In this document: in pieces, positions 4,227-61,038 of the stretch
How the letters are laid out: each line of letters starts with the position of its first letter
Numbering within the stretch: the first letter of the stretch is position 1
Assembly (NCBI GenBank): GCA_026388655.1
Contig: JAPLJI010000141.1
Span: forward strand, 5,890-69,889
Direction of reading: 5' to 3'
Length of the DNA: 64,000 bases
DNA from: Pseudomonadota bacterium
Lineage (GTDB): Bacteria; Desulfobacterota; JAPLJL01
Made by a program: the position numbers and the translations under genes
Notes under the pieces: model-generated
Databases searched by the model: none
The model's input: the letters and a program-made list of their open reading frames with translations, nothing else
What the model was told of the DNA's origin: nothing

Positions 4227-4280
4227 ATCTGGGAAGGGCAAAGAGCGAAGAGCAGAAAAAACGCTGAGATCAAATTCCTA

Positions 4281-15499: not shown

Positions 15500-15730
15500 A
15501 GGGCGGTTTGGACATATCGTTCGGGTTTCGTAGGATTAATAGGGAAGGCCGTGAAAGTCGGCCGCGGTCCCGCCACTGTGATTGGGCTTGAGTCCCGAAC
15601 CTGAGTTTCGGTTCACCCCCGCGCCACTGTTTGCCTGGAAGCGAATGGGAAGGCCGGGGGAATCAGAAGATCGCCCATAAGCCAGGAAACCTGCCCGAAC
15701 GGCTGAGACCTTTAAGCTCTCCGCGTGAGG
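15500..15730 (+). promoter_or_regulatory. Cobalamin (B12) riboswitch, boundaries approximate
   Basis: The conserved core AATAGGGAAGGCCGTGAAAGTCGGCCGCGGTCCCGCCACTGT lies at 15538-15579. The B12 box AAGCCAGGAAACCTGCCC lies at 15679-15696. Located upstream of cobalamin salvage and uptake genes. Confidence 0.85.
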
Positions 15731-15786: not shown

Positions 15787-15923
15787 TATAAAAAACGGTT
15801 TGTTAGCAAGGCAAATTTGGATTATTACTTTAATTATAAAACTTGCCCGAATTGATTGTGATTTTGGGATTTGGCGATTGGGAGTTGTTTGGGATTTTGG
15901 ATTTGGAGCTTGGGATTTTAAAA

Positions 15924-18499: not shown

Positions 18500-18524
18500 G
18501 CGGGATTTTAGGGGAGATTTGCTG

Positions 18525-21365: not shown

Positions 21366-21537
21366 TGACTAATTTCTAATGTCTAATTAAATCCCAATGA
21401 CCAATGACAGAATTAGAATTAACTAAAAAATCAAAATTAGCATTGGAATCTGGATATTGATTTCGCATTAAGCCAATTAGACATTAGTCATTTTAGTAAG
21501 ATATTGATTAGAAATTCGTCATTAGGAATTAGGCATT
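21366..21537. repeat. Intercistronic word-repeat hairpin element (aatttctaatgtc / gacattagaaatt family), copy E1
   Basis: The left-arm words taatgactaatttctaatgtctaatt are mirrored by aattagacattagtcatt ... ttagaaattcgtcattag on the right. It fills the whole btuF-btuC gap. Confidence 0.7.
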
Positions 21538-22551: not shown

Positions 22552-22804
22552 AAAATAAGTTGATAGTGAAAAACCTGAAACGATCAGTGGCAAATTTCTA
22601 ATGTCTAATGACGAATTTCTAATCAACCCTTCGACTTCCCCGGTCTAAAGCCCGGGGTATGCTCAGGGTTGATCCTGAGCGAAGTCGATGGATCAATGTC
22701 CAAACTAAAAATGTCTAATCCTAAACTCTAAAAATCAATTAGTCATTGGGATTTAATTAGACATTAGAAATTAGTCATTAGTAATTTTTACGAGGAATTA
22801 TTCA
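22552..22804. repeat. Intercistronic word-repeat hairpin element, copy E2, with a nested REP (22625-22692)
   Basis: aatttctaatgtctaatgacgaatttctaat on the left is mirrored by attagacattagaaattagtcattag on the right. The centre carries ccttcgacttcc...gatcctgagcgaagtcgatgg. Confidence 0.7.
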
Positions 22805-30701: not shown

Positions 30702-30904
30702 ATTGCTATAAGTATCTTTTAATTTCTAATTTCTAATGACGAATTTCTAACCAATGATTAAAATCGAATTTCTAATTTCTGAGTTTCTGAGTTGGTCATT
30801 GGAAATTGGGATTTGATTAGGAATTAGAAATTTGTCATTAGGCATTTGTGTAGGATTTAAGATTTCACTATGACCTTCAATTTAAAATGCGATTAGGATA
30901 AGGA
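30702..30904. repeat. Intercistronic word-repeat hairpin element, copy E3, splitting the two transketolase subunit genes
   Basis: taatttctaatttctaatgacgaatttctaacc is mirrored by ttaggaattagaaatttgtcattagg. Confidence 0.7.
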
Positions 30905-31897: not shown

Positions 31898-32156
31898 AAG
31901 TCCAAAAAGGGTTCAAGGGGCCTAGGGTTCGAGGGTTCCAGGGACAAGATCAAGTTCAAATTTCAAAGTTCAAATGTCAAATCAAACCCCAAGCTCAAAG
32001 GTCAAAGATTTGAATAGAAAACGGACGAATGATCACCATGTTTTTTCGTTTGGATTTTGAGCTTTGAAATTGATTTGAACTTTGGATTTTGTCATTTGAA
32101 CTTAGATGTGGGATTTGTTTGGGATTTGGGATTTGGAAATTGGGAGTTGATTTATT
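31898..32156. repeat. Long imperfect inverted repeat built from caaag/gttcaaat/gggattt words, copy E4
   Basis: caagttcaaatttcaaagttcaaatgtcaaatc... is mirrored by ...gattttgtcatttgaacttag around a loop of about 35 nt. Confidence 0.6.
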
Positions 32157-34363: not shown

Positions 34364-34367
34364 GAAT

Positions 34368-36270: not shown

Positions 36271-38070
36271 ATGAAATTTTTCAAAATATTCATTAAATTT
36301 TCCTGGGTATTTTGGTTTATTTTGATTTTCGGTTGCCAGGGTGAAAAAGCCAAGATGCCATCTCCCGCCGCACCTTCAGACCTCGCGGCCACGGCGGTTT
36401 CGACCACCCAGATTGATCTGGCCTGGCAGGATCATACTGACTACGAGGAAGGCTTTCGGATCGAGCGAAAGACCGGGAGCAGCTCCTACGCGCTGCTCGC
36501 CGAGATCCCGCTGAATACGGTTTCTTATTCGGACAACGGTTTGAACCCGGATGCCGCCTATTCCTACCGGGTTTACGCTTTTAACCAGGCCGGTGATTCC
36601 AATTATTCAAACGAGGTTACCGTCCAGACCCTGAGCAATCTCCCCGGCGCCCCCTCCGGGCTCGTGGCCGAGGCGGTTCCCGGCCACCAGATCAATCTTT
36701 CCTGGTCGGCCGGTTCCAACAATCAAGACGGTTTTGAGATTGAACGCAAAGCGGGAGACACGGGCACTTACGTTTCCCTGGGCATATTGGGAGCCGGTGT
36801 TCTTACTTATTCCGACGTTAATCTTACCCCGGGCGTTGATTATTATTACCGGCTCAGGGCTTTCAACCTTTACGGAAATTCCATTTTTTCCAACGAAGCC
36901 TTCGCCCGGGCTCTCGAGCCGGCCAGCCAGGTCTCGGCGGGAGGATTCCATACCTGCGCCTTATTGCCCGGGGGGAAGGTTCAATGCTGGGGGGATAATT
37001 CCTACGGCCAGCTCGGAAATGGGACCACCACCAGCGTGAATGTCCCGGTCCCGGTTTCGGGCTTGACCGAGGAGGTAGCCGCCATCTCGTCCGGGGATTC
37101 CCATACCTGCGTTTTAACCCACTCCGGCGGAGTTAAATGCTGGGGGCGGAACGATGATGGACAGCTGGGAATGGGAAACAGCACCGGTCCGGAATCATGC
37201 TGGGAAAATATCCCTTGCAGTAAGTCCCCGGTAGACGTGACGGGGCTTGGCTCCGGGGTCGCCGTGGTTTCCGCGGGGATGCGGCACACCTGTGCGGTCA
37301 CCGGGGCGGGAAAGGCCGAATGCTGGGGCTATGACGGCTACGGCCAGCTCGGGGATGGAAACAAAACGGGCCGGAGCGCCGTCCCGGTGGACGTGGCGGG
37401 TTTTGCTTCCGGGGTGACCGGGATTTCCGCCGGGGCCTATCATACCTGCGCGGTAACCAGCGTGGGAGCGGTGAAGTGCTGGGGGTGGAATGATTCGGGG
37501 CAGTTGGGGATCGGAACCAACAATGGCCCGGAATACTGCACCGCCGATCTCAGCTGCAGTTCCACGCCCCTCGGCGTATCCGGACTCACCTCGGGATTTA
37601 CGGCCGTTTCCGCCGGCGGATTGCACTCCTGCGCCTTGAATTGCGAGGGAGGAATTCAGTGCTGGGGGTATAACGGGGACGGGGAACTGGGAGACGACCC
37701 CCAGGACAGCTCGTTGAACTTTAACAGTAACCCGGTCTGGGTATTCTACTTTTCCCATACTGGAGTCAAAGCCATTTCCGCGGGGGCTTACCATACCTGC
37801 GCTTTGACCACCGAAGGAGGTTTGAAATGCTGGGGTACTGGTGAAGCCGGTCAGCTGGGGAATGGAACCACGGTCAGATCGAAGATCCCGGAAGCGGTGA
37901 CCGGATTGGCTTCCGGGGTAATCGGGATTTCTTCCGGGGCCTGGCATACCTGCGCTTTAATCGAAGGAGGATGGGCCAAGTGCTGGGGTAATAACGATTA
38001 CGGACAGCTCGGGGATGGGACCCAGACCCTCAGTGACACCCCTGTAGGCGTGGTTGGGATAGGCCCATGA
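36271..38070 (+). CDS. Secreted lipoprotein with 2 fibronectin type III domains and about 7 RCC1-like beta-propeller repeats
   Basis: Lipobox IFGCQ and two repeats of PSxLxAxAVSxxQIxLxWxD...GFxIERK. A reiterated HTCA(L/V)xxxGxxxCWGxNxxGQLG motif is also present. Confidence 0.75.
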   Translation: MKFFKIFIKFSWVFWFILIFGCQGEKAKMPSPAAPSDLAATAVSTTQIDLAWQDHTDYEEGFRIERKTGSSSYALLAEIPLNTVSYSDNGLNPDAAYSYRVYAFNQAGDSNYSNEVTVQTLSNLPGAPSGLVAEAVPGHQINLSWSAGSNNQDGFEIERKAGDTGTYVSLGILGAGVLTYSDVNLTPGVDYYYRLRAFNLYGNSIFSNEAFARALEPASQVSAGGFHTCALLPGGKVQCWGDNSYGQLGNGTTTSVNVPVPVSGLTEEVAAISSGDSHTCVLTHSGGVKCWGRNDDGQLGMGNSTGPESCWENIPCSKSPVDVTGLGSGVAVVSAGMRHTCAVTGAGKAECWGYDGYGQLGDGNKTGRSAVPVDVAGFASGVTGISAGAYHTCAVTSVGAVKCWGWNDSGQLGIGTNNGPEYCTADLSCSSTPLGVSGLTSGFTAVSAGGLHSCALNCEGGIQCWGYNGDGELGDDPQDSSLNFNSNPVWVFYFSHTGVKAISAGAYHTCALTTEGGLKCWGTGEAGQLGNGTTVRSKIPEAVTGLASGVIGISSGAWHTCALIEGGWAKCWGNNDYGQLGDGTQTLSDTPVGVVGIGP

Positions 38071-42472: not shown

Positions 42473-42564
42473 TTATTAAATCCCAAATCATAAATTCCAA
42501 GCTCCAAATCCCAAACAAACAACAAATTTTTAGTTCAAAATAAATTCCATTCTGAAGGCCGCAG

Positions 42565-43613: not shown

Positions 43614-43808
43614 GGAATTGACGATTGACGATTTACGAATGACGAGTGAAAAACCAAGAAATTGACGAATGACGATTGACGAATGACGAGTGAAAAACCA
43701 AGAAATTGACGATTGACGAATGACGAATGACGAGTGAAAAACCAAGAAATTGACGAATGACGATTGACGAATGACGAATGGGGAAAAAATAATCGTCAAT
43801 CGTCAATT
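43614..43808. repeat. Tandem repeat, 44-nt unit x about 3.9 (built from TGACGAA/TGACGAT heptamers), ending with an inverted copy of its first 18 nt
   Basis: Units lie at 43614-43657, 43658-43701, 43702-43745 and 43746-about 43783. aatcgtcaatcgtcaatt at 43790-43808 is the reverse complement of aattgacgattgacgatt. Confidence 0.85.
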
Positions 43809-47869: not shown

Positions 47870-49390
47870 TTGTCAACGCAATTAGGCAAAATCCTGGTTG
47901 TTGATGACGACCCAAGCATCCGGGAAACCCTGGAAGCAGTGCTGGCCGGCCATTATCCCGTTCTCACCGCCCCAGACGGGGAGACCGCTTTATCCCTGGT
48001 TGAAGATGAAGACGTTCGGATTGTCCTTCTGGATATTCTTATGCCCGGGATTGATGGGATTGAGGTTTTACGGAGGATAAAAGCGAGATTCGATGATGTG
48101 GATGTGGTGATGGTGACCATGGTGCGGGAGGTGGAAAAAGCCGTCGCCGCGATGAAACTGGGAGCCTACGACTATATCACCAAGGAAATCAATTACGATG
48201 AGGTTCTGAACCTGGTTAACCGCATTTATGAAAAACAGGAGCAAGCCCGCCAGATTCGTTATCTCACCTGTGAAATCGAATCGGTGATCCCTCAGGATAT
48301 TATCATTGGAGAGAACCCGAAGATGCAGGCGATTTATGATGTGGTTAAACGGGTCTCTTCCCTGCCGGCGACCGTCCTTTTAATGGGGGAAAGCGGCACC
48401 GGCAAGGATCTGATCGCGCGCATGATCCATAAAAACAGCGACCGGTCCGAGGCCCCTTTCGTAACGGTCAACCTGGCTTCCATTCCCAAGGACCTGCTGG
48501 AGAGCACGCTTTTCGGTCATGAAAAGGGCGCTTTCACCGGCGCGCACAAGATGCATTTCGGCAAATTCGAGCTGGCCAACGGGGGCACGATTTTTCTGGA
48601 TGAAATCGGCGATCTGCCCTTCGATCTCCAGGCTAAACTGCTCCGGGTGATCCAATCCGGCGAGATCGAGAGAGTAGGGGGGAGTAAAACCATCCGGATA
48701 GACACCCGGATCATCGCGGCCACCAATCTGGATTTGAAGAAGGCGGTGGAGGCGGGTAAGTTCCGCGAGGATCTTTATTACCGGCTCAACGTCATTCCCA
48801 TCACGCTACCCCCCTTGCGGGAACGATTGGAGGACATTCCGGAACTCGTAAATCTTTTTATCGAAAGGTACAACCGTCGTTTTCGCAAATCGGTGCGGGG
48901 GGTGGCTGCGGAAGTAATCAGACTCTTCTCCCGTTATAACTGGCCCGGGAATATCCGGGAGCTCGAGAATGTAATCGAGCGGATGGTGGCGATAGTACCC
49001 CGGGAGGTTATTACCATCGAGGATCTGCCGATGGAATTCTGCTTTGAGAGTTTTCAGGATTATTCCGCCGAGGCCGGAACCGCCCCCCGCCGGCATCGCT
49101 TCAATACCCTCCGAAAAGCCAAGGAGGCTTTTGAAAGCCAGTATATTCTCCGGGTTTTGGAGAGATGCCGCTGGAACCAGACGGAAACCGCCCGGGAATT
49201 GAACATTAACCTCAGCAGCCTGAAATACCGCATGCGTCGCCTGGGGTTGGAAAAAGCGTCCAAGCCTCACACCACTCGGGGTCGGCCCCTGAAGTATTAT
49301 CGCCACCCGGTAACCGTCCACCGGGTTTTACACGCGAGAAAGAGACGAAAATCATTGGTCCTGCCCGCCGAAGAGGAAAAAAAAGAGTAG
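47870..49390 (+). CDS. NtrC-type sigma-54-dependent response regulator (REC + AAA+ + Fis-type HTH), TTG start
   Basis: ILVVDDDPSIRE, VLLDILMPGIDG, GESGTGKDLIA, the GAFTGA loop (EKGAFTGA), FLDEIGDL and C-terminal NQTETARELNINLSSLKYRMRRLG. Confidence 0.85.
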   Translation: MSTQLGKILVVDDDPSIRETLEAVLAGHYPVLTAPDGETALSLVEDEDVRIVLLDILMPGIDGIEVLRRIKARFDDVDVVMVTMVREVEKAVAAMKLGAYDYITKEINYDEVLNLVNRIYEKQEQARQIRYLTCEIESVIPQDIIIGENPKMQAIYDVVKRVSSLPATVLLMGESGTGKDLIARMIHKNSDRSEAPFVTVNLASIPKDLLESTLFGHEKGAFTGAHKMHFGKFELANGGTIFLDEIGDLPFDLQAKLLRVIQSGEIERVGGSKTIRIDTRIIAATNLDLKKAVEAGKFREDLYYRLNVIPITLPPLRERLEDIPELVNLFIERYNRRFRKSVRGVAAEVIRLFSRYNWPGNIRELENVIERMVAIVPREVITIEDLPMEFCFESFQDYSAEAGTAPRRHRFNTLRKAKEAFESQYILRVLERCRWNQTETARELNINLSSLKYRMRRLGLEKASKPHTTRGRPLKYYRHPVTVHRVLHARKRRKSLVLPAEEEKKE

Positions 49391-49402
49391 GAAACAATCT
49401 CC

Positions 49403-51439
49403 ATGAGGGCAGAGAGGATATTCGCCGGCTACTTTTTCCCAATATTGTTTTTACTGGTTTTAATATTCCCGGTTCGGATTTTCGGCCAGGATAGTTCCGA
49501 TCAGCCGGTCCAACTCACGCCGGTCGAGATTACTTCCACCCGGATTCCCGGTCCGGTGGACGAAGCCACCGATTCGATAACTATCATTAATACGAGGGAG
49601 GTCCGAGCCGATTCCGCTCCTTTAATTTCAGAACAGCTCCGGATGGTTTCGGGGGTGGGGGTACAAACCTCCGGGTCCGTGGGCGAGCAGACGGAGATCC
49701 GGATTCGCGGGAGCGAAAATAATCAAAGCCTGATCCTTTTCGACGGGGTGAGATTGAATTCGCCCTATACCCGGGCCGCCGACCTGGGGGATTTCTTCGT
49801 GGCCGGTTTGGATCGGATCGAGATCGTCCGGGGGGCTTATAGTTCGCTTTACGGGAGCGACGCCATCGGCGGGGTGATCAATCTGATTCCTTATCCCGGC
49901 CGCTCCCTCCTGCATGGAATCAGGAAGGAAAAGGGAATTTCCGCCTGGGCCGAGGGCGGTAGTTTTTCCACTTCTAAGGAACGGGCGGAATTCACCGCCG
50001 CGGGGGAAGAAAGCGCTTTTTCGCTGGCATTGGCCCGGGTGGACAGCGGGGGCCGGAATGCCCGGGACGGTTTTGCCGGTAACCTGGCCACGGGCAAGTT
50101 TCAGGTCCTGATCCCCGGAGGGGTGGAGGTGGGAATCTCCGCCCTTTTCTCCCAGTCGAAAAAGGAGCTTTATCTGGATACCCCTATTTCTTTGTATATT
50201 CAGAACGAGGTGTTGACCCAGGTGAAAGATTCCAATTACTCGGAAGAGAGAGAAACCCTGCTGACGGCGGTTTCTCTCCGGAAGTCGCTTTTTCTGAACG
50301 GAGAATTACAAATCCATGGTTCGGTCCTGCGCGGTGAAGATGATTTGATGAATCCTTCCGATCCCGGATGGACGGATTACCACGCCTCCTGGACGAACGC
50401 GATGAGAAGAGGCGCGGGAATCCAGATGTATTTGACCCCGGTCGAAATGAATTCCGTCCTTTTGGGTACGGAGTACTCCGAAGAAAACGCCATACAGACT
50501 ATGGAAACCAACCTGCCTCTGGCTGGGCAGGGTGATCCGCTATGGTTGAAAATAGACGGTAAACGGATCGAAAGGACGTTTTTTCTTGAGGATCGGTTGA
50601 AGATGATGGGTTTCTTCTATCTGAACGCGGGACTTCGGATGGATTTCAGCTCGGATCGACCCGATTCCGAACCTTTTATCTCCCCCCGCGGTTCGGCGGC
50701 TTTCAAACTGGATAGGTTAGGGACTAAGATCCGGGGAGGTTTTGGGAGGGGTTACCGCAACCCCTCAATTGATGAAAGATTCTTCCCCATAAAGGGGAAT
50801 CCGGAACTCAAGCCGGAAGAAGCCTGGAGCTACGACGCCGGTTTGGAGCAGGAGTTTAAAGAATACGGAATAAAATTTGACCTGACCGGATTCTGGATCA
50901 GATATGAGAATTTGATCGGATTGGTTCCGGATTCTTTCCAGCTGCAGAATTCCGACCTGGCCAAGTCCGATGGTTTGGAGACCAGTTTGGTTTTTCAGCC
51001 GGACAAGCGTATTAAAATAAGATTCGGCTACACCTTTAACCAGATGCGAAAAAGAACTTATGAATTTGATGAAGTTAGCGGACAACCGATGGAGAAGTGG
51101 GTGAACTTTTTCTGGAGACCCGAGCATAGCTTCAGCGGGACGCTGAGCGTTTTGCCGATGGAAAAATTGTATGTCGGACTTTCCTGGGAAAATCGGGGGA
51201 GGTTTGACGAACCTTATGATATTCTCAATCCCGGAGGGACATTGCTGAAGGGGAATAATCCGGGGTTCAACCGGCTCAACCTTTTCTCCGAATATACGGT
51301 TCCGTATTCGCTCCAACCGATGGAAAGCCTGTCGGTGTTTTTCCGGGGAGAAAACCTTCTTAACAAGAAGTATTCCGAGGTTAAAGGTTTCCCTCTTCCC
51401 GGGATTTCTTTTTACGGCGGCATAAATTTAAAGATTTAA
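49403..51439 (+). CDS. TonB-dependent receptor (substrate unknown)
   Basis: Signal peptide, TonB-box-like QLTPVEITSTR, plug motifs (IRIRGSENNQSLILFDGVRLNS, IEIVRGAYSSLYGSDAIGGVINLI) and a C-terminal barrel ending GGINLKI. It starts 12 nt after the activator gene. Confidence 0.8.
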   Translation: MRAERIFAGYFFPILFLLVLIFPVRIFGQDSSDQPVQLTPVEITSTRIPGPVDEATDSITIINTREVRADSAPLISEQLRMVSGVGVQTSGSVGEQTEIRIRGSENNQSLILFDGVRLNSPYTRAADLGDFFVAGLDRIEIVRGAYSSLYGSDAIGGVINLIPYPGRSLLHGIRKEKGISAWAEGGSFSTSKERAEFTAAGEESAFSLALARVDSGGRNARDGFAGNLATGKFQVLIPGGVEVGISALFSQSKKELYLDTPISLYIQNEVLTQVKDSNYSEERETLLTAVSLRKSLFLNGELQIHGSVLRGEDDLMNPSDPGWTDYHASWTNAMRRGAGIQMYLTPVEMNSVLLGTEYSEENAIQTMETNLPLAGQGDPLWLKIDGKRIERTFFLEDRLKMMGFFYLNAGLRMDFSSDRPDSEPFISPRGSAAFKLDRLGTKIRGGFGRGYRNPSIDERFFPIKGNPELKPEEAWSYDAGLEQEFKEYGIKFDLTGFWIRYENLIGLVPDSFQLQNSDLAKSDGLETSLVFQPDKRIKIRFGYTFNQMRKRTYEFDEVSGQPMEKWVNFFWRPEHSFSGTLSVLPMEKLYVGLSWENRGRFDEPYDILNPGGTLLKGNNPGFNRLNLFSEYTVPYSLQPMESLSVFFRGENLLNKKYSEVKGFPLPGISFYGGINLKI

Positions 51440-52004: not shown

Positions 52005-52019
52005 TGGTATTGATATTGC
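52005..52019 (+). promoter_or_regulatory. Sigma-54 (-24/-12) promoter candidate TGGTAT-N5-TTGC, 29 nt upstream of the radical SAM start codon
   Basis: tGGtattgatatTGCt with the GG and GC at the canonical 11-nt register. It lies at the end of a 370-nt AT-rich non-coding region, with an NtrC-type activator encoded 2.6 kb upstream. Confidence 0.55.
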
Positions 52020-52047
52020 TTATGTATTCTTACAGGGTTCAACATTT

Positions 52048-53355
52048 ATGGTTCCGTCTAAATTCAATATCATTATTCCGAGCGAGGCTGGAGATTTTAA
52101 ATATACCCTTTATAACACCTTCAGCGACAGCCAGGCCCAGATTGGATCGGATGTCCTGGCGCTTCTCGAACCCGGACATAAAATCGCGGCGAAAAAGAGA
52201 GAAAAACTCCTGGTAAAATACGCCGGGAGTTTAAAAGAGCTGGGATTCCTGGTCGAGAACAGGAAGAATGAAGATAAGGCGGTTAAGGATTGGTTTTATC
52301 AAAAACAAATCAATCAAGAGGAATTGCAAATAACGGTTTTGCCGACCTATAGATGCAATCTGGCCTGTGTATATTGTTTCCAATCTCATATAGACACATC
52401 CGAAAAAAATAAAAATATCAGCAAAAAAACCATCCTACGCCTGGTCAAATGGGCCGGGGAGAGGATGGATTCGATCCATCCCAGAAAGCTTCAACTTTTA
52501 TTTTATGGAGGGGAACCGCTTTGCCGGGAGCGGGACGTCCTGGCTATTTCCACCCTGGTTTCCAACGAAGCCAAGAAAAGGTCAATCGGCCTTTCTATCC
52601 AGATGATCACCAATGGGACCCTTCTCCAAGCCGGTTTTATAAATTCAATGGTTCCGTTGGGGCTGGAATGCGTAAAGATAACAATTGACGGTACTAAAGA
52701 TAAGCATAATCAGCTCAGGATCGGGAAAAAAAGTAAAAGAACATTTGATATTATCATTGGTAATTTATTGAAAACAAAAGATAAATTAAAATTCATCATT
52801 GGCTCGAATTATAACCTCGAAAATTTCAACAGCATTCCAAAATTATACGATCATTTAATCGGTATAGGTTTGCGGAAATCGATTTCGCGGGTGAATTTCA
52901 GGCCCATTTTCCAAGGTGGCACCCGCTACAACTGCGATGTCTGTTCGTTTTCGGAGTCGGACCCATCCACCCAACTCTGGCTTTATGAAGAGGCCCGGAA
53001 AAGAGGGTTGGAAACGATGGATTTACTGTCGTTAGGACCTTGCGGATTTCATAAACGCGACGCGTATACGATTGATCCCGAGGGGAAGGTTTACAAATGC
53101 GAGGGCTTGATCGGGATGGAAGGGGCCGAGTTGGGGGATCTTTATACCGGCGACATTGAGGAAAAATCCGAGAGCTTTATCGCCAGGTTCGACTTATTCG
53201 GGAATTGCGGCGAGTGCGGATACCTTCCGATCTGCGGCGGCGGCTGCCGGTATTGGGCTTATGTAAAAACCGGGGATTTTTTCGGGACGGCCTGCGAAAA
53301 GAAATACTTCGATTTCGTGTCAAAGGAAATCATCCCGGGAAGGGCGATGGCTTAA
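52048..53355 (+). CDS. Radical SAM / SPASM-domain enzyme with a 100-aa N-terminal extension (RRE-like), i.e. a peptide-maturase-type architecture
   Basis: CNLACVYC (Cys103/107/110), GGEPL, and C-terminal SPASM cysteines (CGFHKRDAYTIDPEGKVYKC ... CGECGYLPICGGGCRYWAY). Confidence 0.8.
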   Translation: MVPSKFNIIIPSEAGDFKYTLYNTFSDSQAQIGSDVLALLEPGHKIAAKKREKLLVKYAGSLKELGFLVENRKNEDKAVKDWFYQKQINQEELQITVLPTYRCNLACVYCFQSHIDTSEKNKNISKKTILRLVKWAGERMDSIHPRKLQLLFYGGEPLCRERDVLAISTLVSNEAKKRSIGLSIQMITNGTLLQAGFINSMVPLGLECVKITIDGTKDKHNQLRIGKKSKRTFDIIIGNLLKTKDKLKFIIGSNYNLENFNSIPKLYDHLIGIGLRKSISRVNFRPIFQGGTRYNCDVCSFSESDPSTQLWLYEEARKRGLETMDLLSLGPCGFHKRDAYTIDPEGKVYKCEGLIGMEGAELGDLYTGDIEEKSESFIARFDLFGNCGECGYLPICGGGCRYWAYVKTGDFFGTACEKKYFDFVSKEIIPGRAMA

Positions 53356-53381
53356 TGAGGGTATACAACGGATACCAGAGC

Positions 53382-53435
53382 GCAGTTGCCCGATTTGACG
53401 GGCACATAACGATTGCCGATAAATCGGCGGACTAC
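53382..53435. repeat. REP2 element (inverse orientation), with a partial copy at about 53469-53490
   Basis: gcagttgcccgatttgacgggcacataacgattgccgataaatcggcggactac. Confidence 0.75.
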
Positions 53436-53542
53436 ATAATTCCCCGGGGATTGGGGATTAATAACCGCGTAGTTGTCCGATTTATTTATCCCGAAAAACG
53501 AGGGATCGGGCCGAATTGGGACGGTTTTTTCCAAACCATCGG

Positions 53543-53567
53543 GAGCCGCTTCAGCGGCTCTTTTTTT
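53543..53567 (+). terminator. Intrinsic terminator 190 nt downstream of the radical SAM gene
   Basis: GAGCCGC-ttca-GCGGCTC followed by T7. Confidence 0.7.
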
Positions 53568-53669
53568 GGGGTAAAGGAGCCCCTTCCTGGCCGGATTTGC
53601 CCGGGCTCGGGCAGGCTGAGGGCTTCTTTCTCGGGTTATGAAAATCATTAAGAAAGGAGGTGAAGACGA

Positions 53670-53744
53670 ATGAAGATTATCCGAAAAGGAAACCGGCGGA
53701 GTAACCCAGGCACCAATCGTTGCGTGTGGGTAATTATGCAGTGA
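53670..53744 (+). CDS. 24-codon ORF with a perfect Shine-Dalgarno: candidate precursor or signal peptide MKIIRKGNRRSNPGTNRCVWVIMQ
   Basis: AAGGAGGTGA (10-nt match to the anti-SD) ends 7 nt before the ATG, the strongest RBS seen in the window. It lies between the radical SAM/SPASM gene and a peptide-binding SBP gene. A 9-bp-stem hairpin follows at 53777-53808. There is no homology evidence. Confidence 0.35.
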   Translation: MKIIRKGNRRSNPGTNRCVWVIMQ

Positions 53745-53862
53745 TAATGATAGGAAAAAGCAGGGATTGAAAGATTCGGTTTGAATTTCAAATCTGGTTT
53801 TCAAACCGGAAGAAAAATGATAAATTTGATAGGCGAATTGTAGTTCGCCTTATTTTTATCTG

Positions 53863-55470
53863 ATGAATATTTCCCCCAGAAAGATAATAGCATCGATAAT
53901 TTTATCACTGCTTTTAATTTCATCCTGCCATCGGAAAAGTGATCATGAAAAAAAGGATTATGGAGATTGGGTATATTTCGGCGTTTATGACAAATTGACC
54001 GGAATAGATCCGCTCAAGGATGTTTCCACTCTATCTTCCATACTTTCCGATGTTATTTTTAACGGGTTGGTGGGGATTGATGAAAATGGGGAGATTGTTC
54101 CAGATCTGGCTAAAGGTTGGGAATGGTCGGAGGATAAGAAAAGTATTAATTTTTATTTGAAAGAAGGAATAAAATTTCACGATGGGTTTGTTTATGATGC
54201 AAGTGATGTAGATTTTACCTTCCGGCAAATCCTAGCCCCGTCATATTCTGGAAGCGGTAACTATGATTTGACCATGGTTGAGAATGTTAAGGTATTGGAT
54301 AATCAAACCATTTCTTTCGGTCTTAAGGGGATATCAAATCTCTTTCTTTTTAACTCGATAATTCAGATTCTCCCTCGTCATATTTTTGAGAATGATATTG
54401 GCGGCAGGGAGAGATTTTTATGGAACCCAATCGGCACGGGCCCATTTAAAGTGGTACGTTTGTCCGGATCGGAGGCTGTTTTGGAAGCAAATCGAGATTA
54501 CTTTAAGGGAAGGCCTTTTTTAGACGGGATAGTCGTAAAATCCTATAAAAACCAGGACGAGGTTTGGGCGAGACTTTTAACGGAGGAGGTCGATTTTTGT
54601 TTGCCCTTATCCCCGGGCCAGGTTGATTTCATGAAAAACAATACAAATATCAAAATTTATTCATATCTTTCCCCTTATTATTATCTTTTGGCTTTCAACG
54701 GGAAAAATCCATTATTTCAAAGTAGAAAGGTGAGGGTTGCTTTAAATCAGGCAATAGATCGCGATGAGATCATCGAAAAAATCCTGAATAATCACGGGAG
54801 ATTATGCTCAGGCACGGTTTACCCTTATTCATGGGCGTTTGATCCGGAACTTAAACCTTATTCATATGACCCGGCGACCGCCTTAAAAATGATTATGGAA
54901 GAGGGTTGGATAAGGGATAAGAACGGTATTCTTAAGAAGAATGGCAAGCCATTTGAATTTACGGTTTTGATTATCTCGGGAGAAAATCAATCAGAGAATT
55001 TAGTATTGTCAATTGAAAAATATCTTGCCGAAATAGGAATTAAAATTAAGATCCAGCCGGTGACCATGGGTGAACTGAATCGTAAGTATTTGTTTTCTAA
55101 AAAGTTTGAAGCGGCTCTATTCAGTTTTGATTCCGGGATTCATCCGGGATATTTAAATTACCGGATATGGCATTCCTCTCAGATACAAAAAGGTTTGAAT
55201 GTTTTTTCCTATCAAAATGCGGAAGTGGACGAAGATTTGGAACTTGTTCTGCGGGTCGGAGATAGGATCGAAGAAAAGAAATATTATTATAAATTTCAAA
55301 GAGAAATATTCGACGATCCGCCCGGGGTTTTCCTTTTCTGGAAAGAAGAAATGGTTCCGATTCATAAAAGATTTCGAGGAATTAAAGCCGGACCCGAGAA
55401 ATTGTTTGTATCCATTCCGGAATGGTGGGTTCCGAAGAATGAACAAAAATATAAAATCGGTCCAAATTGA
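53863..55470 (+). CDS. Family-5 (OppA/DppA/NikA-type) periplasmic peptide/metallophore-binding lipoprotein, with no cognate permease or ATPase genes nearby
   Basis: Lipobox LLISSC, with family-5 motifs (GIDPLKD, FHDGFVYDASDVDFTF, GTGPFKVV, NRDYFKGRPFLDGIVV, FEFTVLI). The family call is from the motif pattern only. Confidence 0.7.
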   Translation: MNISPRKIIASIILSLLLISSCHRKSDHEKKDYGDWVYFGVYDKLTGIDPLKDVSTLSSILSDVIFNGLVGIDENGEIVPDLAKGWEWSEDKKSINFYLKEGIKFHDGFVYDASDVDFTFRQILAPSYSGSGNYDLTMVENVKVLDNQTISFGLKGISNLFLFNSIIQILPRHIFENDIGGRERFLWNPIGTGPFKVVRLSGSEAVLEANRDYFKGRPFLDGIVVKSYKNQDEVWARLLTEEVDFCLPLSPGQVDFMKNNTNIKIYSYLSPYYYLLAFNGKNPLFQSRKVRVALNQAIDRDEIIEKILNNHGRLCSGTVYPYSWAFDPELKPYSYDPATALKMIMEEGWIRDKNGILKKNGKPFEFTVLIISGENQSENLVLSIEKYLAEIGIKIKIQPVTMGELNRKYLFSKKFEAALFSFDSGIHPGYLNYRIWHSSQIQKGLNVFSYQNAEVDEDLELVLRVGDRIEEKKYYYKFQREIFDDPPGVFLFWKEEMVPIHKRFRGIKAGPEKLFVSIPEWWVPKNEQKYKIGPN

Positions 55471-55606: not shown

Positions 55607-57352
55607 ATGAAACGTCTTTCTTTAAAATTTATTTTACTCCTTTTGGTGGTTGCTTTGATTCCTATTATTTTATTCGGGGCCATTTCGATTTACTCCTCCT
55701 TAAGGGTGACTTACCAAAGGGTCATGCAGGGGAATCAAAACGTGACCAGACGGGCCGCCAGTGAGATAGAAACCTATCTGAAAAACTCGATTGATACGAT
55801 GAGAACCCTGGCTGATAACCTGAGCAACGTAAATCTAAATTCCGCGCAAAAAGAAAGGATTATTAAAAATTATGTTATAGATTACGGGAGGTTGGAAGAA
55901 GTTTTGTTGATCGATCAAGAAACGAATGAAAGGATATCCACCCGTCCGGAAACGGATTTTAAAACGATTTTAGATTCGGATGAATTCAAGATCTCGGCGG
56001 GAGGGAAGATATCCCTCTCCGACATAATCATCTCGTCTTCCCTGGCCCCGACAATGAAGATCTTGGTTCCGATTTTCCATCTCGGTAAAGTGCGGGGCGC
56101 GTTAATCGGGAATTTCAATCTCATTGATATGTGGAGTCTGGTTGATTCGATCAAGATCGGGAACACCGGTTTCGCCTATGTGGTTACCGATTCCGGGCGG
56201 TTGATCGCCCATGGAAACGATAACCGCAAAGCGGATGTTCTTCGAGGGATTAACATTGCCGGCCTGCCGCCGGTCAAATCGGTTCTCCAGGGGGATTCCC
56301 GGCCGGTTATATACCGAGAAAAAGGGGGGACAAAGTCGTTGTCGGTGGCGTCTCCGGTTATTCTCCCGGACGGTCGGAGATGGGGGGTGGTGATTGAGCA
56401 ATCCACCCGGGAAGCCTTCCGGGCCGCTTACCTCCTAGCCTTTGAATTGGCTGGACTGGTTATAGTGTTCCTGGTGTTGATGAGCCTGGTCGGATATTTC
56501 GGGGGAAAGGGTATTGCCAAGCCTCTGGGCGAACTTGTTTTCGCCACGGGAATGATCGCCCGGGGAGATTTGAATGTCCGCGTCCGGATAAAAAGTCGGG
56601 ACGAACTGGCCGATCTGGGTGATTCATTCAATAAAATGGCGGAAAAGCTCGGCGATCTTACCGAAGAGATTCGGAGAAAGGAGAGAGTGGCGACCTTCGG
56701 GCGGATTGCCGCCGGCCTGGTGCACGATCTCCGCCACCCGATTCAGAACATTCAAAATTCCTCTAACCTGATTGTTCAGAAACCGGATGATCCGCAAATC
56801 CGAAAGGTATTTAAAAATACCGTAGAGAGGGAGTTTACTAATATCAACGAATTTCTGGATCGCTTGCGAAATCTAACCAAACCCTCCCGGATTCAAATCG
56901 TTGAAATCGAGGTTAACGGGTTTTTATCCGAAATATTGAAAATATATCGCAATGATTCATCCTTGAATAAGCTGGAATGGATTGCGGAGCTCGAGCCGGA
57001 GAACCCCAGGATCAGGGCCGACCGTTTTGTTTTGGAACGGGCCTGTAAAAATATCCTCACCAACGCGATTGAAGCGGTCGGTGGGCAAGGGAAAATAAAG
57101 ATAACCACCAGAGTGGACAACCATTTGGTTTTTATAGAATTTTTAGATAGCGGCCCGGGTATTTCTCCTGAAAGACTAAAGAACATTTTTGAGGATTTCT
57201 CCACCACGAAACGGAGAGGATTAGGTCTCGGATTGGCCACGGCCAAAAAGCTGACCGAGGAAATTGGCGGACGGATCGGGATAGATAGTCAGCCAGGGCA
57301 AGGCACCAAGGCAAAGCTCATCTTTCCCGTCACAACCGACACCAACACTTAA
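55607..57352 (+). CDS. Sensor histidine kinase: TM, periplasmic Cache-like domain, TM, HAMP, NtrB/AtoS-type HisKA, HATPase
   Basis: Two TM segments flank a 260-aa periplasmic region. HAMP (PLGELVFATGMIARGDLNVRV), H-box FGRIAAGLVHDLRHPIQN, N-box NILTNAIEA and G-boxes DSGPGI and GLGLGLA follow. Confidence 0.85.
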   Translation: MKRLSLKFILLLLVVALIPIILFGAISIYSSLRVTYQRVMQGNQNVTRRAASEIETYLKNSIDTMRTLADNLSNVNLNSAQKERIIKNYVIDYGRLEEVLLIDQETNERISTRPETDFKTILDSDEFKISAGGKISLSDIIISSSLAPTMKILVPIFHLGKVRGALIGNFNLIDMWSLVDSIKIGNTGFAYVVTDSGRLIAHGNDNRKADVLRGINIAGLPPVKSVLQGDSRPVIYREKGGTKSLSVASPVILPDGRRWGVVIEQSTREAFRAAYLLAFELAGLVIVFLVLMSLVGYFGGKGIAKPLGELVFATGMIARGDLNVRVRIKSRDELADLGDSFNKMAEKLGDLTEEIRRKERVATFGRIAAGLVHDLRHPIQNIQNSSNLIVQKPDDPQIRKVFKNTVEREFTNINEFLDRLRNLTKPSRIQIVEIEVNGFLSEILKIYRNDSSLNKLEWIAELEPENPRIRADRFVLERACKNILTNAIEAVGGQGKIKITTRVDNHLVFIEFLDSGPGISPERLKNIFEDFSTTKRRGLGLGLATAKKLTEEIGGRIGIDSQPGQGTKAKLIFPVTTDTNT

Positions 57353-57585: not shown

Positions 57586-57684
57586 GTCATCCTGAGCGAT
57601 AGCGAAGGATCTGGTTTTTCTGAGTTTTCCAACGCAAAAAAAACGAGATTCTTCGCCCTTCGGCAGGCTCAGGGCTCAGAATGA
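57586..57684. repeat. REP1b composite, itself bracketed by a 13-nt inverted repeat (TGTAATGCCTCAA at 57523-57535 / TTGAGGCATTACA at 57708-57720)
   Basis: gtcatcctgagcgatagcgaaggatc ... ggctcagggctcagaatgac. The outer arms were read directly. Confidence 0.7.
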
Positions 57685-57755
57685 CAAAAAGAAAGTATGT
57701 CATTTGCTTGAGGCATTACAGCTACTGGCATCTTTTCTTGGTTTTTTACCATTCC

Positions 57756-57770
57756 TGGCACGGATTTTGC
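57756..57770 (+). promoter_or_regulatory. Sigma-54 promoter, perfect consensus TGGCACG-N4-TTGC
   Basis: ctGGCACGgattTTGCtt, 46 nt upstream of the ATG at 57816. Confidence 0.75.
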
Positions 57771-57815
57771 TTGGTAAATACAGAGGGCAACCATTTTTTA
57801 AGAAAGGGGCTTTAT

Positions 57816-58079
57816 ATGGCACGTATATTATCCAGAACAATCCGGCTGGGGCCTGAACTTTCAGGGCTTGAGGTCCGAACTTATTACCACCAGCTGGCTA
57901 ATGGGGAATCTTTTTTCAGCTCAGAGGCGGAGTTAAGCCCGGGGGACCGGATTGTGGTGGATGGTCGTTCGGCATCTCAGTCCGAGCGCCGTTTGCAGGG
58001 ATTGATTCCGGTCAGTCTTATCTGCCGGGAGGTGGAGGGGAGGAAAAATGGTTCAAAAACACCGCGTTCTAATGATTGA
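57816..58079 (+). CDS. Small hypothetical protein (87 aa), first gene behind the sigma-54 promoter
   Basis: MARILSRTIRLGPELSGLEVRTYYHQLANGESFF... with an AAAGGGG RBS. It overlaps the receiver gene by 32 nt. No domain recognised. Confidence 0.35.
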   Translation: MARILSRTIRLGPELSGLEVRTYYHQLANGESFFSSEAELSPGDRIVVDGRSASQSERRLQGLIPVSLICREVEGRKNGSKTPRSND

Positions 58080-58464
58080 TGACGACCAACTGATTCTCCG
58101 GGCCTTTTCCCGCCTGCTTAATGATGGGGATTATGAGCTCCTGACCGTTTCGGATGGAGAGGGAGCAATCAGGATTCTCCAAGAGAAACCGGTTTCGGTG
58201 GTTATTTCCGATGAGATCTTAACCAGCGACGAGGGTTCTCCGGTTCTGGAAGCCTTGATGTCGAAGCATTCGTGTACCCAGAGAATAATATTTACCGGGT
58301 GGCCCCGGGAGACACTTTGCTGGGAAAAGATCAAGGCTTGCAAGCCATTCGCCGTGGTGGCCAAGCCCGATATTGATAACCGGCTCCGGAAGGCCATCCG
58401 CGCGGCGATTAAAGAATACGAAAACAGTCCGCTCTTTAGCCGGGGAATTAATATTTATTATTAA
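58048..58464 (+). CDS. Stand-alone receiver-domain response regulator
   Basis: VLMIDDDQLILRAF, VVISDE (phospho-acceptor Asp), IIFTG and KP. A strong GGAGGGGAGG RBS is present. Confidence 0.75.
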   Translation: MVQKHRVLMIDDDQLILRAFSRLLNDGDYELLTVSDGEGAIRILQEKPVSVVISDEILTSDEGSPVLEALMSKHSCTQRIIFTGWPRETLCWEKIKACKPFAVVAKPDIDNRLRKAIRAAIKEYENSPLFSRGINIYY

Positions 58465-59567: not shown

Positions 59568-60899
59568 TTATTTTTTTGATTCCATCCGCGGAAGAACCAC
59601 GTTATTGACGAACTGCGTGATCTGGTCCTGGATGGATTCCACCGGGGTGACCCGGGGGTCGAACATGTCGAACTCGAATACGAGCAGGGGCATCCCGATC
59701 TCCCGGGACTTTTCCTTAAGCAGGCCGAGCCCGCCCCAGGCGTGCTTGCAGGCGACATGGCCGGCGAAAATACCGAAGTCGGCTTTATATTCCCGGCAGA
59801 GGGTGAGGTAGTCGTTCAGGTACCATTCAATCGGTCCCTTGAATTGCCGGGACATCGGCATGACCCGGATGAAGCGGTGGGCTAGGCCCCGAATCATGCT
59901 TTCCCGGGAGCTGACATCAATCATGCCTTCCGGGGCGTGATAGCCGAAAAGGTCCATCGGGATAACCATTTTCAACTCGCTTTCCATCCAGTCGTAGAAT
60001 TGCAGGTCAAACCAGACCGGGTCCTGGTACCAGACCGCCCGGATTTTTTCGCCTTCCACCGCGGCCTCGCCCCGCTCGCTCCTTTCCCGGGCTTCCGCGG
60101 CCAGCTCCGCGGCGGTGACCACGCCGGTTTCGGTCCCGGCAAAGGTGATGAAAAGGGGCACCATCAGGCAGATGATCTTGGATATCTGCGGGCAGGGGAC
60201 CGCCTTCCGGAATTCATTCCAGGCCAGGAGGTTTTCACTCATCCGGTTCGCCCGCAGGCAGATTTCCCGGAAGCGCTCCCAGCTGAATTTCCTACCGGTA
60301 TGTTTTTCCAGGAAGGGAATGGCGTCCCGGATCTGCCGGGCCACATATTCAACTTCCCTTTCTCCATAAAGGTAAGGGATGTCGATCAGAAACATGGGGG
60401 CTTCCGCAATCTCGGCCACCGAGGGCAGGGCGGCCAGCTGGGAATCACAGGGGGTATTGACCCCCAGGATACAGGAAGGCTTCGGCATGATGCCTTTCAA
60501 GACCGCTCCCACCCCGGCCTTGTCCACCGAGCACACCTCGGGGGGGAGACCGTGGGCCTCGGCCCGGTCGATGTAATCCAGGGTGAAGTTGACGTCGCCG
60601 ACAATGTTCTGGAGGGCGGGATAGGCCTCGATCGGGATATTGTGAACGTCTTCCAGGGCGAGGATCAGCTCCGGACTCATTCCGAGGTTGTACCAGACCA
60701 CCGGCTGCTTATCGTCGAAGGGCCGGCAGAGATTCTCGACCAGCTGGGAGAAAGCCTTGAAGTAGGCGTTCAGGCCCCGCGAGGCGGGGTCTTCTTTGTA
60801 AATCTCGAGCATCCCCGTGATTCCTTCGTGGATTGCTTCCAGGTCCTCAAAGCGTTCTTTGCCGAGAATGGCCATTAGCACCCTCCGGGGAAATCCCAA
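59568..60899 (-). CDS. 2-hydroxyacyl-CoA dehydratase / benzoyl-CoA reductase subunit-family protein (HGD-D family), large subunit
   Basis: Family-typical layout with conserved Cys positions (GVNTPCDS, HVACKHAWG). It is clustered with a BcrAD/BadFG-type activator ATPase. The call is from memory of the family. Confidence 0.6.
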   Translation of the reverse strand: MGFPRRVLMAILGKERFEDLEAIHEGITGMLEIYKEDPASRGLNAYFKAFSQLVENLCRPFDDKQPVVWYNLGMSPELILALEDVHNIPIEAYPALQNIVGDVNFTLDYIDRAEAHGLPPEVCSVDKAGVGAVLKGIMPKPSCILGVNTPCDSQLAALPSVAEIAEAPMFLIDIPYLYGEREVEYVARQIRDAIPFLEKHTGRKFSWERFREICLRANRMSENLLAWNEFRKAVPCPQISKIICLMVPLFITFAGTETGVVTAAELAAEARERSERGEAAVEGEKIRAVWYQDPVWFDLQFYDWMESELKMVIPMDLFGYHAPEGMIDVSSRESMIRGLAHRFIRVMPMSRQFKGPIEWYLNDYLTLCREYKADFGIFAGHVACKHAWGGLGLLKEKSREIGMPLLVFEFDMFDPRVTPVESIQDQITQFVNNVVLPRMESKK

Positions 60900-61038
60900 T
60901 TAATAAATCCCAAATCCCAAACAAATCCCAAGCGCCAAATCCCAATAATTAAGCAATGACCAATAACCAAATCCCAATCACCAAACAATGACCAATGACC
61001 AAATTCCAAAGAACTTGAACCTTGAACTATGAACCTTA
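60900..61038. repeat. Intercistronic word repeat (aaatcccaa / caatgaccaa / gaaccttgaac)
   Basis: The words are the complement of the gggattt/ttgggatt words at 15843-15923 and 32100-32150. aaatcccaaacaaa also occurs at 42522. Confidence 0.65.

Follow-up and report, generated by a model that had tools for sequence, protein, structure and literature searches.

A short open reading frame beside a radical SAM/SPASM gene as a probable member of an unannotated precursor-peptide family

Introduction

What is encoded between a peptide-maturase gene and a solute-binding protein gene in the genome of an uncultured bacterium, where gene callers report nothing? This question is raised by a 64,000-nucleotide stretch of DNA (hereafter the window) from a Pseudomonadota bacterium placed by GTDB in Desulfobacterota, JAPLJL01 (assembly GCA_026388655.1, contig JAPLJI010000141.1, positions 5,890 to 69,889 of the forward strand). 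Here, a gene for a radical S-adenosylmethionine (rSAM) enzyme with a SPASM domain and a gene for a solute-binding protein (SBP) flank an unannotated open reading frame (ORF) of 24 codons at 53670-53744 on the + strand (ATG to TGA, product MKIIRKGNRRSNPGTNRCVWVIMQ), exactly where a preliminary description of the locus had placed it. The same description had proposed that this small gene encodes the precursor of a peptide that is made by ribosomes and modified post-translationally (a RiPP) for the neighbouring enzyme. With a probability of roughly 0.8, we consider that the ORF is indeed a genuine small gene, translated at a high level, and specifies a precursor, the substrate peptide of the adjacent rSAM enzyme. 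This proposal is supported by the conservation of the ORF in syntenic loci and by homologous ORFs beside rSAM genes in about 15 distant loci.

Results and discussion

The small ORF has the strongest Shine-Dalgarno sequence of the window

The ORF is preceded by the Shine-Dalgarno (SD) sequence AAGGAGGTGA (53654-53663, + strand), which lies 6 nt before the ATG (spacer AGACGA, 53664-53669; 7 nt had been given earlier) and is invariant in the four loci that were aligned. This sequence occurs once on both strands of the 64-kb window, compared with 0.14 occurrences expected from shuffled sequences. Its duplex with the canonical anti-SD tail is predicted at -17.8 kcal/mol, and all SD energies given here presume such a 16S tail, the window itself having no 16S gene. 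Among the 45 long ORFs of the window, the median duplex energy is -4.2 kcal/mol when the first start codon is used and -6.9 kcal/mol when the best one is used, and the strongest reaches -11.9 kcal/mol. Thus, the small ORF does carry the best SD of the window, and most genes there have much weaker ribosome-binding sites, as the preliminary description had stated. The two flanking genes are nearly devoid of an SD (-3.8 kcal/mol for the rSAM gene and about 0 for the SBP gene).

Further examination of this region revealed a second copy of the 5' end of the ORF (ATGAAAATCATTAAGAAAGG; 53638-53673, + strand), in which 20 nt (53638-53657) are repeated 32 nt upstream, reaching into the SD. In the window, this copy forms an 11-codon upstream ORF (uORF) with the product MKIIKKGGEDE, whose TGA overlaps the main start codon (ATGA). 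Translation of this uORF is doubtful because the ATG of the copy is absent from the related loci L001, L002, L063 and L069, which retain the sequence (AAAATCATTAAGAAAGGAGG). The copy has the appearance of an ancient duplication of the ORF's 5' end, one that has come to supply the SD.

Several other features overlapping the small ORF were considered and rejected. There is no conservation of two minus-strand ORFs (53352-53804, 150 aa, and 53648-53791, 47 aa): in relatives, the longest open stretch drops from 165 codons to 83-105 codons. An ORF on the + strand (53205-53651, 148 aa), which spans the end of the rSAM gene, a repetitive extragenic palindromic (REP)-like element and a terminator, was judged spurious. 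A stem that would sequester the SD (CUUCUUUCU with AGAAAGGAG) is predicted in the window, and its upstream arm is not conserved in L001, L063 and L069.

The ORF is conserved in syntenic relatives

Homologues of the rSAM protein with 71-74% identity were found in loci of the same gene order (L001, L002 and L004). When the spacers between the rSAM and SBP genes were aligned, the only strongly conserved island consisted of the SD, the ATG and the ORF; around it, the spacer contains large indels, and the REP-like element and the terminator are shifted in position and orientation. Conservation in such loci had been set as the test of the proposal in the preliminary description. All four complete syntenic copies, namely those of L069 (MKIIRKGNRRSNRGTNRCVWVIMQ), L001 (MKIIRKGTRKDDRKTTFCAWAVIH), L002 (MKIIKKGTRRNSRSVNRCVWVISH) and L063 (MKIIKKGTRRNNRKTNYCIWALMR), have exactly 24 codons with zero indels and end in TGA or TAG at the same position, and the copy in L004, which runs into the contig end (MKIIKKGNRRNNRGTNFCAW...), has an identical start. 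The ORF is therefore more than a chance feature, as its SD, frame, start and stop position are preserved in every syntenic locus. The product can be divided into a conserved leader (approximately residues 1-9), a variable basic linker (residues 10-17) and a core of the form C18-x-W20-hydrophobic. Codons 1-9 are almost invariant, synonymous sites included, codons 10-17 are approximately neutral, and both Cys18 and Trp20 are fixed.

Homologous ORFs recur beside rSAM genes in distant loci

In about 15 distant loci, whose rSAM proteins are 26-47% identical and whose DNA cannot be aligned, the rSAM gene again has a small ORF with an SD as its neighbour. The corresponding peptides combine a K-rich N-terminus (MKIIKKG, MKVKVLKKG) with a C(C)-x-[W/F]-hydrophobic core. 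Part of these loci were obtained by scanning metagenomes with a pattern made of the SD and the first seven codons, followed by a short-ORF filter and a tblastn search with the window proteins. In loci found this way, the short ORF adjoins an rSAM homologue (26-38% identity), usually together with an SBP homologue. The peptide genes of L032 (MKIIKKGSKIIVPRPDCQWVLDHR), L040 (MKIIKKGSKVATRYLGCDWYIDRGPLR), L039/L075 (MKIIKKGDRKENSKPVFCAFFIM) and L057 (...YCMFFIM) are located beside the rSAM gene, that of L033 (MKIIKKGKKAQTDRCYYAHCVEYWM) upstream of it, that of L065 (MKIIHKGKSVKEIAANMACCKAGAPSAAK) between a TonB-dependent receptor gene and the rSAM gene, and that of L058 (MKIIKKGIKNPAAVSPTGCCNLGPSPFRA) after TonB-dependent receptor and SBP genes. 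A scan of genome contigs with a tight pattern matched the L002 genome only.

For a second set of nine loci, contigs were chosen from rSAM homologues without use of the peptide, and small ORFs were then sought beside the enzyme gene. Eight of them yielded peptides of the family, i.e., those of L081 (MKVIKVGKKYGRVHPMGCCWYIYGGYMLGF), L082 (MKVKTVKKAGKKEVKTLYCLFYMGG), L084 (VKVKVLKKGVTPERVCLWFKY), L086 (MEIVRHGSDQVVEATPRRCCFPIGTLSYRRL), L088 (MKLHVLKEGSKKEIRLGFCCSPPWTFSLW...), L089 (MIVKVLDRGTENPVDILAFCCLWFEGDYA), L090 (MQLEIIVEGAQAADAIEMGCCGFDVSFRRPYVADEE) and L092 (MELRTLKKGSKTKIVLGVCCASPWTYSAW...), and the peptide of L091 is more divergent, with an acidic leader and the ending ...SACCATSYTNYGG. 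The SDs ahead of the distant ORFs are of the GGAGG or GGGGGTGA type, or of an extended GG(A/G)GGTGA type. Multiple sequence alignment of 14 peptides demonstrates a single invariant column, the Cys, with an aromatic residue at +1 or +2 in most sequences. Family peptides are 21-36 residues long and contain one or two Cys. Gene order varies among loci (rSAM-peptide-SBP, SBP-peptide-rSAM or TonB-dependent receptor-peptide-rSAM) and the peptide gene remains beside the rSAM gene throughout, which argues against its being a mere uORF of the SBP gene.

Longer precursors of 59-68 aa form a subfamily in L088 (5780-5959) and L092 (297-503). Their common features are the core G-x-CC-x-(S)PW-T-x-S-x-W and a long tail at the C-terminus, and they are encoded on a 5.7-Mb contig and in a Latescibacteria metagenome-assembled genome (MAG), beside rSAM, Cache kinase and sigma-54 regulator genes.

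The neighbouring enzyme resembles RiPP maturases

The gene upstream of the small ORF (52048-53355, + strand; Pfam Radical_SAM, E = 1e-14) encodes an rSAM/SPASM peptide maturase with a domain at its N-terminus resembling a RiPP recognition element (RRE). In an alignment of 64 sequences, the three cysteines of the CX3CX2C motif (C103, C107 and C110) are invariant, and so are all seven SPASM cysteines (C332, C351, C387, C390, C396, C400 and C416; spacing CX2CX5CX3C). The AlphaFold (AF2) model of the enzyme (pLDDT 91.4) places a beta3-alpha3 unit ahead of the rSAM barrel, with strands at residues 7-11, 19-23 and 28-32, helices at 34-40, 48-65 and 72-88, and pLDDT values of 77-96. As modelled, this unit is like the PqqD-like RRE. 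The best fold match in the PDB, over the full length and including the N-terminal domain, is CteB (5wgg), the thioether-forming maturase of SCIFF peptides (TM 0.72), followed by SuiB, anSME, the ChlB-leader complex and TigE; sequence searches agree.

The best NCBIfam model for the enzyme is TIGR04280 ("geopeptide radical SAM maturase"), with 242.9 bits at a cut-off of 400. The models that follow, CefB (NF038107), TIGR04463, the Clo7bot maturase (TIGR04334) and PapB, all describe RiPP maturases. TIGR04280 is also the best model for nine examined members of the clade, all of which score 232-330 bits, under the 400-bit cut-off. The scores for PapB (114 bits, cut-off 340) and the SCIFF maturase (70 bits, cut-off 425) place the enzyme in neither of these named families, and YhhB reaches 76.5 bits at a cut-off of 445. 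The clade is large, as 507 proteins match a member at E <= 1e-40.

A proposed route from precursor to cross-linked peptide

In the scheme that we propose, the conserved, basic and beta-strand-prone N-terminus of the peptide (MKII[K/R]KG) would dock on the N-terminal recognition domain of the enzyme, whose 5'-deoxyadenosyl-radical chemistry would then install an intramolecular cross-link in the C-terminal core. This cross-link would use the invariant Cys18 and would most plausibly be a thioether with a carbon atom in a residue close by, for example the aromatic residue at +2 (C-x-W/F). To our knowledge, all rSAM/SPASM peptide cross-links that use Cys are S-C thioethers, and a thioether at Cys18 is predicted here because the Cys is the sole invariant residue and because known Cys cross-links are of this kind. 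This is the most economical prediction of the chemistry. The strong SD, together with a terminator after the ORF, would yield far more peptide than downstream proteins.

Gene neighbourhood and a possible signalling role

The small ORF is part of a recurring cassette encoded entirely on the + strand of the window. In order, it comprises a sigma-54 activator response regulator, i.e., an enhancer-binding protein with AAA+ and Fis-type HTH domains (47870-49390; Pfam Response_reg, Sigma54_activat and HTH_8); a TonB-dependent outer-membrane receptor (49403-51439; Pfam Plug and TonB_dep_Rec_b-barrel); the rSAM/SPASM enzyme; the small ORF; an orphan family-5 solute-binding lipoprotein of the OppA/AppA type (53863-55470; Pfam SBP_bac_5, with the lipobox LISSC in its translation); a dCache-HAMP-HisKA-HATPase sensor histidine kinase recognized by domain search (55607-57352); and a stand-alone receiver-domain response regulator (58048-58464; Pfam Response_reg), which is conserved in L001 and L002. 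SBP_bac_5 proteins and dCache-HAMP kinases accompany the rSAM enzyme in most loci, and sigma-54 regulators, TonB-dependent receptors and extra receivers often do. The SBP gene adjoins the rSAM or peptide gene in nearly every locus examined. The sigma-54 regulator recurs in L001, L002, L082, L086, L088 and L092, the TonB-dependent receptor in L040, L058, L065, L081, L086, L088 and L090, and the Cache kinase in L001, L002, L075, L081, L082, L084, L086, L088, L089, L090 and L092. MAGs bearing the cassette are labelled Omnitrophica, Latescibacteria, Poribacteria, Nitrospinota and Nitrospirae, besides unclassified lineages. The closest solved relative of the SBP is the oligopeptide binder AppA of B. 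subtilis (E = 3e-61). No inner-membrane importer permease or ATPase for the SBP was seen in any of the loci examined, including the vicinity of the SBP gene in the window. ABC exporters are present in L086 and L090.

Comparison of the window with L001 revealed a mosaic pattern of divergence. Nucleotide identity is 99-100% over 50.4-51.4 kb and 97-100% over 57.8-59.0 kb, and falls to only 53-81% over about 51.8-57.7 kb, which is exactly the rSAM-peptide-SBP-kinase segment. At the protein level, identity is 74% for the rSAM enzyme, 54% (13/24) for the peptide, 65% for the SBP and 78% for the kinase, the flanking genes reaching 92-98%. Within the TonB-dependent receptor, the N-terminal half (49400-50400) is 73-88% identical and the C-terminal half 100%. 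Block-wise replacement of enzyme, peptide and receptor is a signature of peptide-pheromone specificity cassettes. In practical terms, such replacement of alleles between near-identical strains supplies natural specificity variants.

The conserved pairing with an SBP, a Cache kinase, a sigma-54 activator and a TonB-dependent receptor suggests peptide communication or sensing in uncultured diderms. We tentatively propose that the mature peptide might act as an extracellular or periplasmic signal, which the SBP would bind and the kinase would pass on to the sigma-54 regulator, an assignment held with clearly less confidence than that of the precursor. The mature peptide would reach the periplasm, with re-entry through the TonB-dependent receptor, and some relatives have dedicated ABC exporters; the orphan OppA-like lipoprotein would bind it there and signal through the Cache kinase to the sigma-54 regulator, closing an autoinduction loop. 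A broader and somewhat more speculative extension is that a hitherto unrecognized, phylum-spanning class of peptide-pheromone circuits could exist in diderm bacteria, in which a 20-35-residue, rSAM-cross-linked peptide, TonB uptake, an OppA-like SBP, a Cache kinase and a sigma-54 activator drive the peptide operon, the enzyme-peptide-SBP-kinase segment is exchanged between strains as a "pherotype" cassette, and the cross-link could be a new Cys-aromatic linkage. We know of essentially no ribosomal peptide pheromones in uncultured diderm bacteria.

The same neighbourhood could be read differently, with the peptide as a metallophore or nutrient RiPP that is secreted to capture metal, re-imported via the TonB-dependent receptor and bound by the SBP, the kinase merely reporting uptake. 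Methanobactin operons contain the TonB-dependent receptor MbnT and the SBP_bac_5 protein MbnE, and a receptor and an SBP of these types beside a precursor gene mirror that pair. The invariant Cys, the frequent His or Met at the C-terminus, and the presence of metal-complex binders of the NikA/CntA type among the weaker relatives of the SBP point in the same direction. However, the missing import permease and ATPase are difficult to reconcile with nutrient uptake, a single Cys is a poor chelator, and AppA, the nearest relative of the SBP, binds oligopeptides. Moreover, between the window and L001 it is the kinase that co-varies with the peptide and the enzyme, whereas the C-terminal half of the TonB-dependent receptor does not, and maturation is by an rSAM enzyme, genes of the MbnB/MbnC type being absent from the annotated neighbours. 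We thus regard a metallophore as unlikely, albeit the best of the competing explanations.

Hairpins and transcription around the ORF

Between the rSAM stop codon and the ORF, the window contains a REP-like palindromic element, an inverted copy of repeat family D11 (about 53384-53436, - strand), whose position and orientation vary among syntenic loci. It is followed by an intrinsic-terminator-like hairpin (53541-53569, + strand) with a stem at 53541-53562 and a T run, so that the terminator placed at 53543-53567 in the preliminary description is real. The separation of the rSAM gene from the ORF by a terminator and a REP element, which had been raised as a complication, holds for the window and for L002, L004 and L063, where an equivalent terminator is present; it does not hold for L001, where 18 nt with no terminator separate the rSAM stop codon from the start of the ORF.

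Two hairpins follow the ORF. The first (53775-53810, + strand), previously described as having 9-bp arms at 53777-53808, is stable (z = -3.6 for the two-hairpin region) and nearly identical in L063 and L069, with no counterpart recovered from L001 and L002. As for the second, on which the preliminary description had laid no stress, it is a terminator or attenuator hairpin with a T run (53831-53856, + strand; stem 53831-53850), whose end lies 7 nt ahead of the SBP start codon; L001 and L002 retain it, a single base pair being altered on both sides. Terminator-like hairpins are also found 3' of the homologous ORF in L032, L033, L065 and L089. A terminator at this position fits a RiPP precursor, for which a high ratio of peptide to enzyme is needed, and may also throttle expression of the SBP and kinase genes.

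A sigma-54-type promoter-like site, TGGTATTGATATTGCT (52005-52020, + strand), in which GG-N10-GC is kept, is located 28 nt upstream of the rSAM start codon, and the block CTTGGTATTG(A/T)TATTGCTTAT at this site is invariant in five loci. L075/L039, L082, L086 (where the consensus is perfect) and L088 have analogous sites immediately upstream of the operon's first gene, and sigma-54-type promoters were found ahead of the operon in five lineages. Within the window, a perfect sigma-54 consensus with 0 mismatches, TGGCACGGATTTTGCT (57756-57771, + strand), is present about 290 nt upstream of the receiver gene at 58048-58464; it falls inside a domain-less ORF (57681-58079, 132 aa) that is probably not a gene. 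Transcription of the small ORF would start either at the sigma-54-type site that precedes the rSAM gene, with read-through of the terminator that this strain has after that gene, or at another promoter that escaped recognition here.

The hairpins also invite the explanation that the ORF is the leader peptide (uORF) of an attenuator, in which its translation controls the downstream hairpins or terminator and tunes the SBP and kinase genes, the peptide itself having no function. Two hairpins do follow the ORF, the conserved second one abuts the SBP gene, and that gene has neither an SD nor room for a promoter of its own. Nevertheless, the homologous ORF precedes the rSAM gene rather than the SBP gene in L065, L033, L086, L088, L089, L090 and L092, so that the constant partner is the rSAM gene, and the K-rich N-terminal strand and the Cys-x-aromatic motif are kept at the amino-acid level where DNA is unalignable. 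In addition, about 30 nt separate the stop codon from the first hairpin, a distance at which a ribosome in the act of terminating would not interfere, and no conserved alternative pairing that could serve as an anti-terminator was found. A terminator after a precursor gene is the usual arrangement of RiPP loci and fits a precursor equally well. We consequently consider attenuation improbable, slightly more so than a metallophore.

Weighing the precursor assignment

That the ORF is incidental to a conserved regulatory RNA or DNA element, or a chance feature, is very improbable: conservation of the SD and the first 25 nt as nucleotides, synonymous sites included, and a ratio of nonsynonymous to synonymous polymorphism (pN/pS) not clearly below 1 would fit it, but a known non-coding RNA at the ORF was rejected on Rfam searches (no family at gathering thresholds, and only sub-threshold, chance-level matches for 53300-53950 at E <= 1), every relative retains the start, the stop position and the frame, the peptide architecture recurs where DNA is unalignable, and the overlapping minus-strand ORF of 150 aa is not conserved. 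None of the three alternatives explains the constant adjacency to the rSAM gene together with the conservation of the amino-acid motif.

Several observations count against a precursor peptide. In the window, a strong terminator and the REP-like element stand between the rSAM gene and the ORF, and searches of the 86 nt that link this terminator to the SD found neither a sigma-70- nor a sigma-54-like promoter. The annotated neighbours of the window cluster include neither an exporter nor a leader peptidase, which weighs on the signalling proposal too. The pN/pS of the ORF is about 0.4-1 (Nei-Gojobori, five alleles), showing no classical purifying selection outside codons 1-9, Cys18 and Trp20. 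Of the purifying selection anticipated in the preliminary description, the conserved reading frame was observed, and a bias towards synonymous substitutions is not clear; therefore, the case for coding rests on conservation of frame, length and motif. The peptide gene of L058 adjoins TonB-dependent receptor and SBP genes with no rSAM gene in the L058 sequence examined, and the loci found with the search pattern were selected for GGAGG and MKII.KG, so that these features are there partly by construction. The mosaic divergence comes from metagenome contigs, for which chimeric assembly is possible. Finally, transcription, translation and modification of the ORF are all deduced from sequence.

Comparison with known systems

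The closest named relatives of the enzyme are TIGR04280 and its siblings CefB, TIGR04463 and Clo7bot, maturases of short Cys peptides that it matches at full length over the RRE, rSAM and SPASM regions. In contrast to members of TIGR04280 (a hypothetical equivalog), enzymes of the present clade score 232-330 bits, below the 400-bit cut-off, and no peptide model of NCBIfam or Pfam is matched by the peptides; this comparison was made at the level of the models. Likeness to CteB/CteA (SCIFF) and to sacti- and ranthipeptides consists in the best full-length structural match and in an invariant Cys, as expected of a thioether donor. However, sequence identity to CteB is approximately 18%, and the SCIFF peptide contains six Cys in 45 residues, compared with one or two Cys in 21-36 residues here. 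We know of no sacti- or ranthipeptide cluster with an SBP-kinase-TonB-dependent receptor context.

Streptide (StrA/StrB/StrC; PMC10114670) and related streptococcal rSAM RiPPs controlled by quorum sensing resemble the present system in that the precursor is short (about 30 aa), only one rSAM/SPASM enzyme is present, the C-terminal core contains Trp and there is a link to cell-cell signalling; SuiB is among the top structural matches. The differences are that the hosts here are diderms without shp/rgg, that the Lys-x-x-x-Trp motif is absent and a Cys is conserved instead, and that an SBP and a kinase are the proposed receptor, compared with a cytoplasmic Rgg. With the polymorphic peptide-pheromone cassettes agrBDC, comQXP and comCD, the cassette has in common that enzyme, peptide and receptor are grouped and diverge as a block between near-identical strains, and with the SBP-dependent kinases LuxP/LuxQ and AioX/AioS/AioR (the latter with a sigma-54 regulator), that an orphan periplasmic binding protein is paired with a sensor kinase and a sigma-54 activator. 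Both analogies concern a likeness of logic, with no homology beyond generic domains, and imply no membership.

Other systems are set apart by specific features. In triceptides, three-residue cyclophanes of the YhhB/XyeB type, the motif is Aromatic-X-X with the aromatic residue first, whereas it is Cys-X-aromatic here. The MbnB/MbnC pair that lies beside the precursor in methanobactin operons was not found among the annotated neighbours. As for ribosome-mediated attenuators, the distance from the ORF to the first hairpin, the lack of conserved alternative pairing and the many loci in which the ORF does not precede the SBP gene all distinguish the present arrangement.

A probable unannotated precursor family

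Judged from sequence comparisons, the peptides are a putative new, unannotated precursor family for a large rSAM/SPASM clade next to, but outside, TIGR04280. An exact look-up of ten family peptides in a collection of approximately 15 billion proteins found none of them, including the one from an NCBI-annotated MAG (L002). Nine family peptides searched against Pfam and NCBIfam at E <= 10 matched no peptide family, in a search whose HMMER filters may drop such short matches. No description of this system was found in the literature, including term searches of an rSAM-RiPP review and compendium. Enzymes of the clade are named in the source records just "radical SAM" or "SPASM domain-containing protein", and none as "geopeptide maturase"; some longer peptide members (29-68 aa; L089, L090 and L092) were called as hypothetical genes by annotators.

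Precursor genes as short as these (21-36 codons) slip past gene callers, and the 507-member rSAM clade therefore lacks a named substrate in annotation. With a candidate substrate identified, the chemistry of the enzyme becomes directly testable with two small genes.

Other features of the window

Repeats of several kinds were also detected in the window. Direct copies of the REP-like family D11 are located at 34367, 51458 and 59430, and further REP-like families at 3847-3875/55556-55584, 22623-22670/58466-58513 and 33515-33559/57573-57617. One of the REP pairs (29 nt, 97% complementary) places an arm in the interval that separates the SBP gene from the kinase gene, and the positions of the REP-like elements differ across otherwise syntenic loci. 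Unusual low-complexity intergenic arrays, with units such as GGGATTTGG, AATGACGA and TAATTTCTAA, occur at many gene boundaries in both orientations (15864-15918, 21363-21422, 22593-22780, 30720-30850, 32040-32150, 42485-42519, 43616-43790 and 60891-61020); one of them, immediately upstream of ftsH, is a tandem triplet of 44 nt. For FtsH itself, the close relatives are labelled simply "bacterium", and those nearest among the named ones, at about 68% identity, come from MAGs of Deltaproteobacteria or Thermodesulfobacteriota. The repeat search is dominated by families D1, D2 and D5, DNA repeats internal to the gene of a protein that carries an fn3 domain and RCC1 repeats (36271-38070). In addition, in a short CRISPR-like array at 4069-4231 the 32-nt repeat TTCGCCCCCTGTACGGGGGCGTGGATTGAAAC occurs three times with a spacing of 65-66 nt, the last copy being degenerate, and a cobalamin riboswitch (15506-15712, 95 bits) lies upstream of a gene cluster in which a CobT-type phosphoribosyltransferase (16528-17607) and a second TonB-dependent receptor (18519-20483) are encoded.

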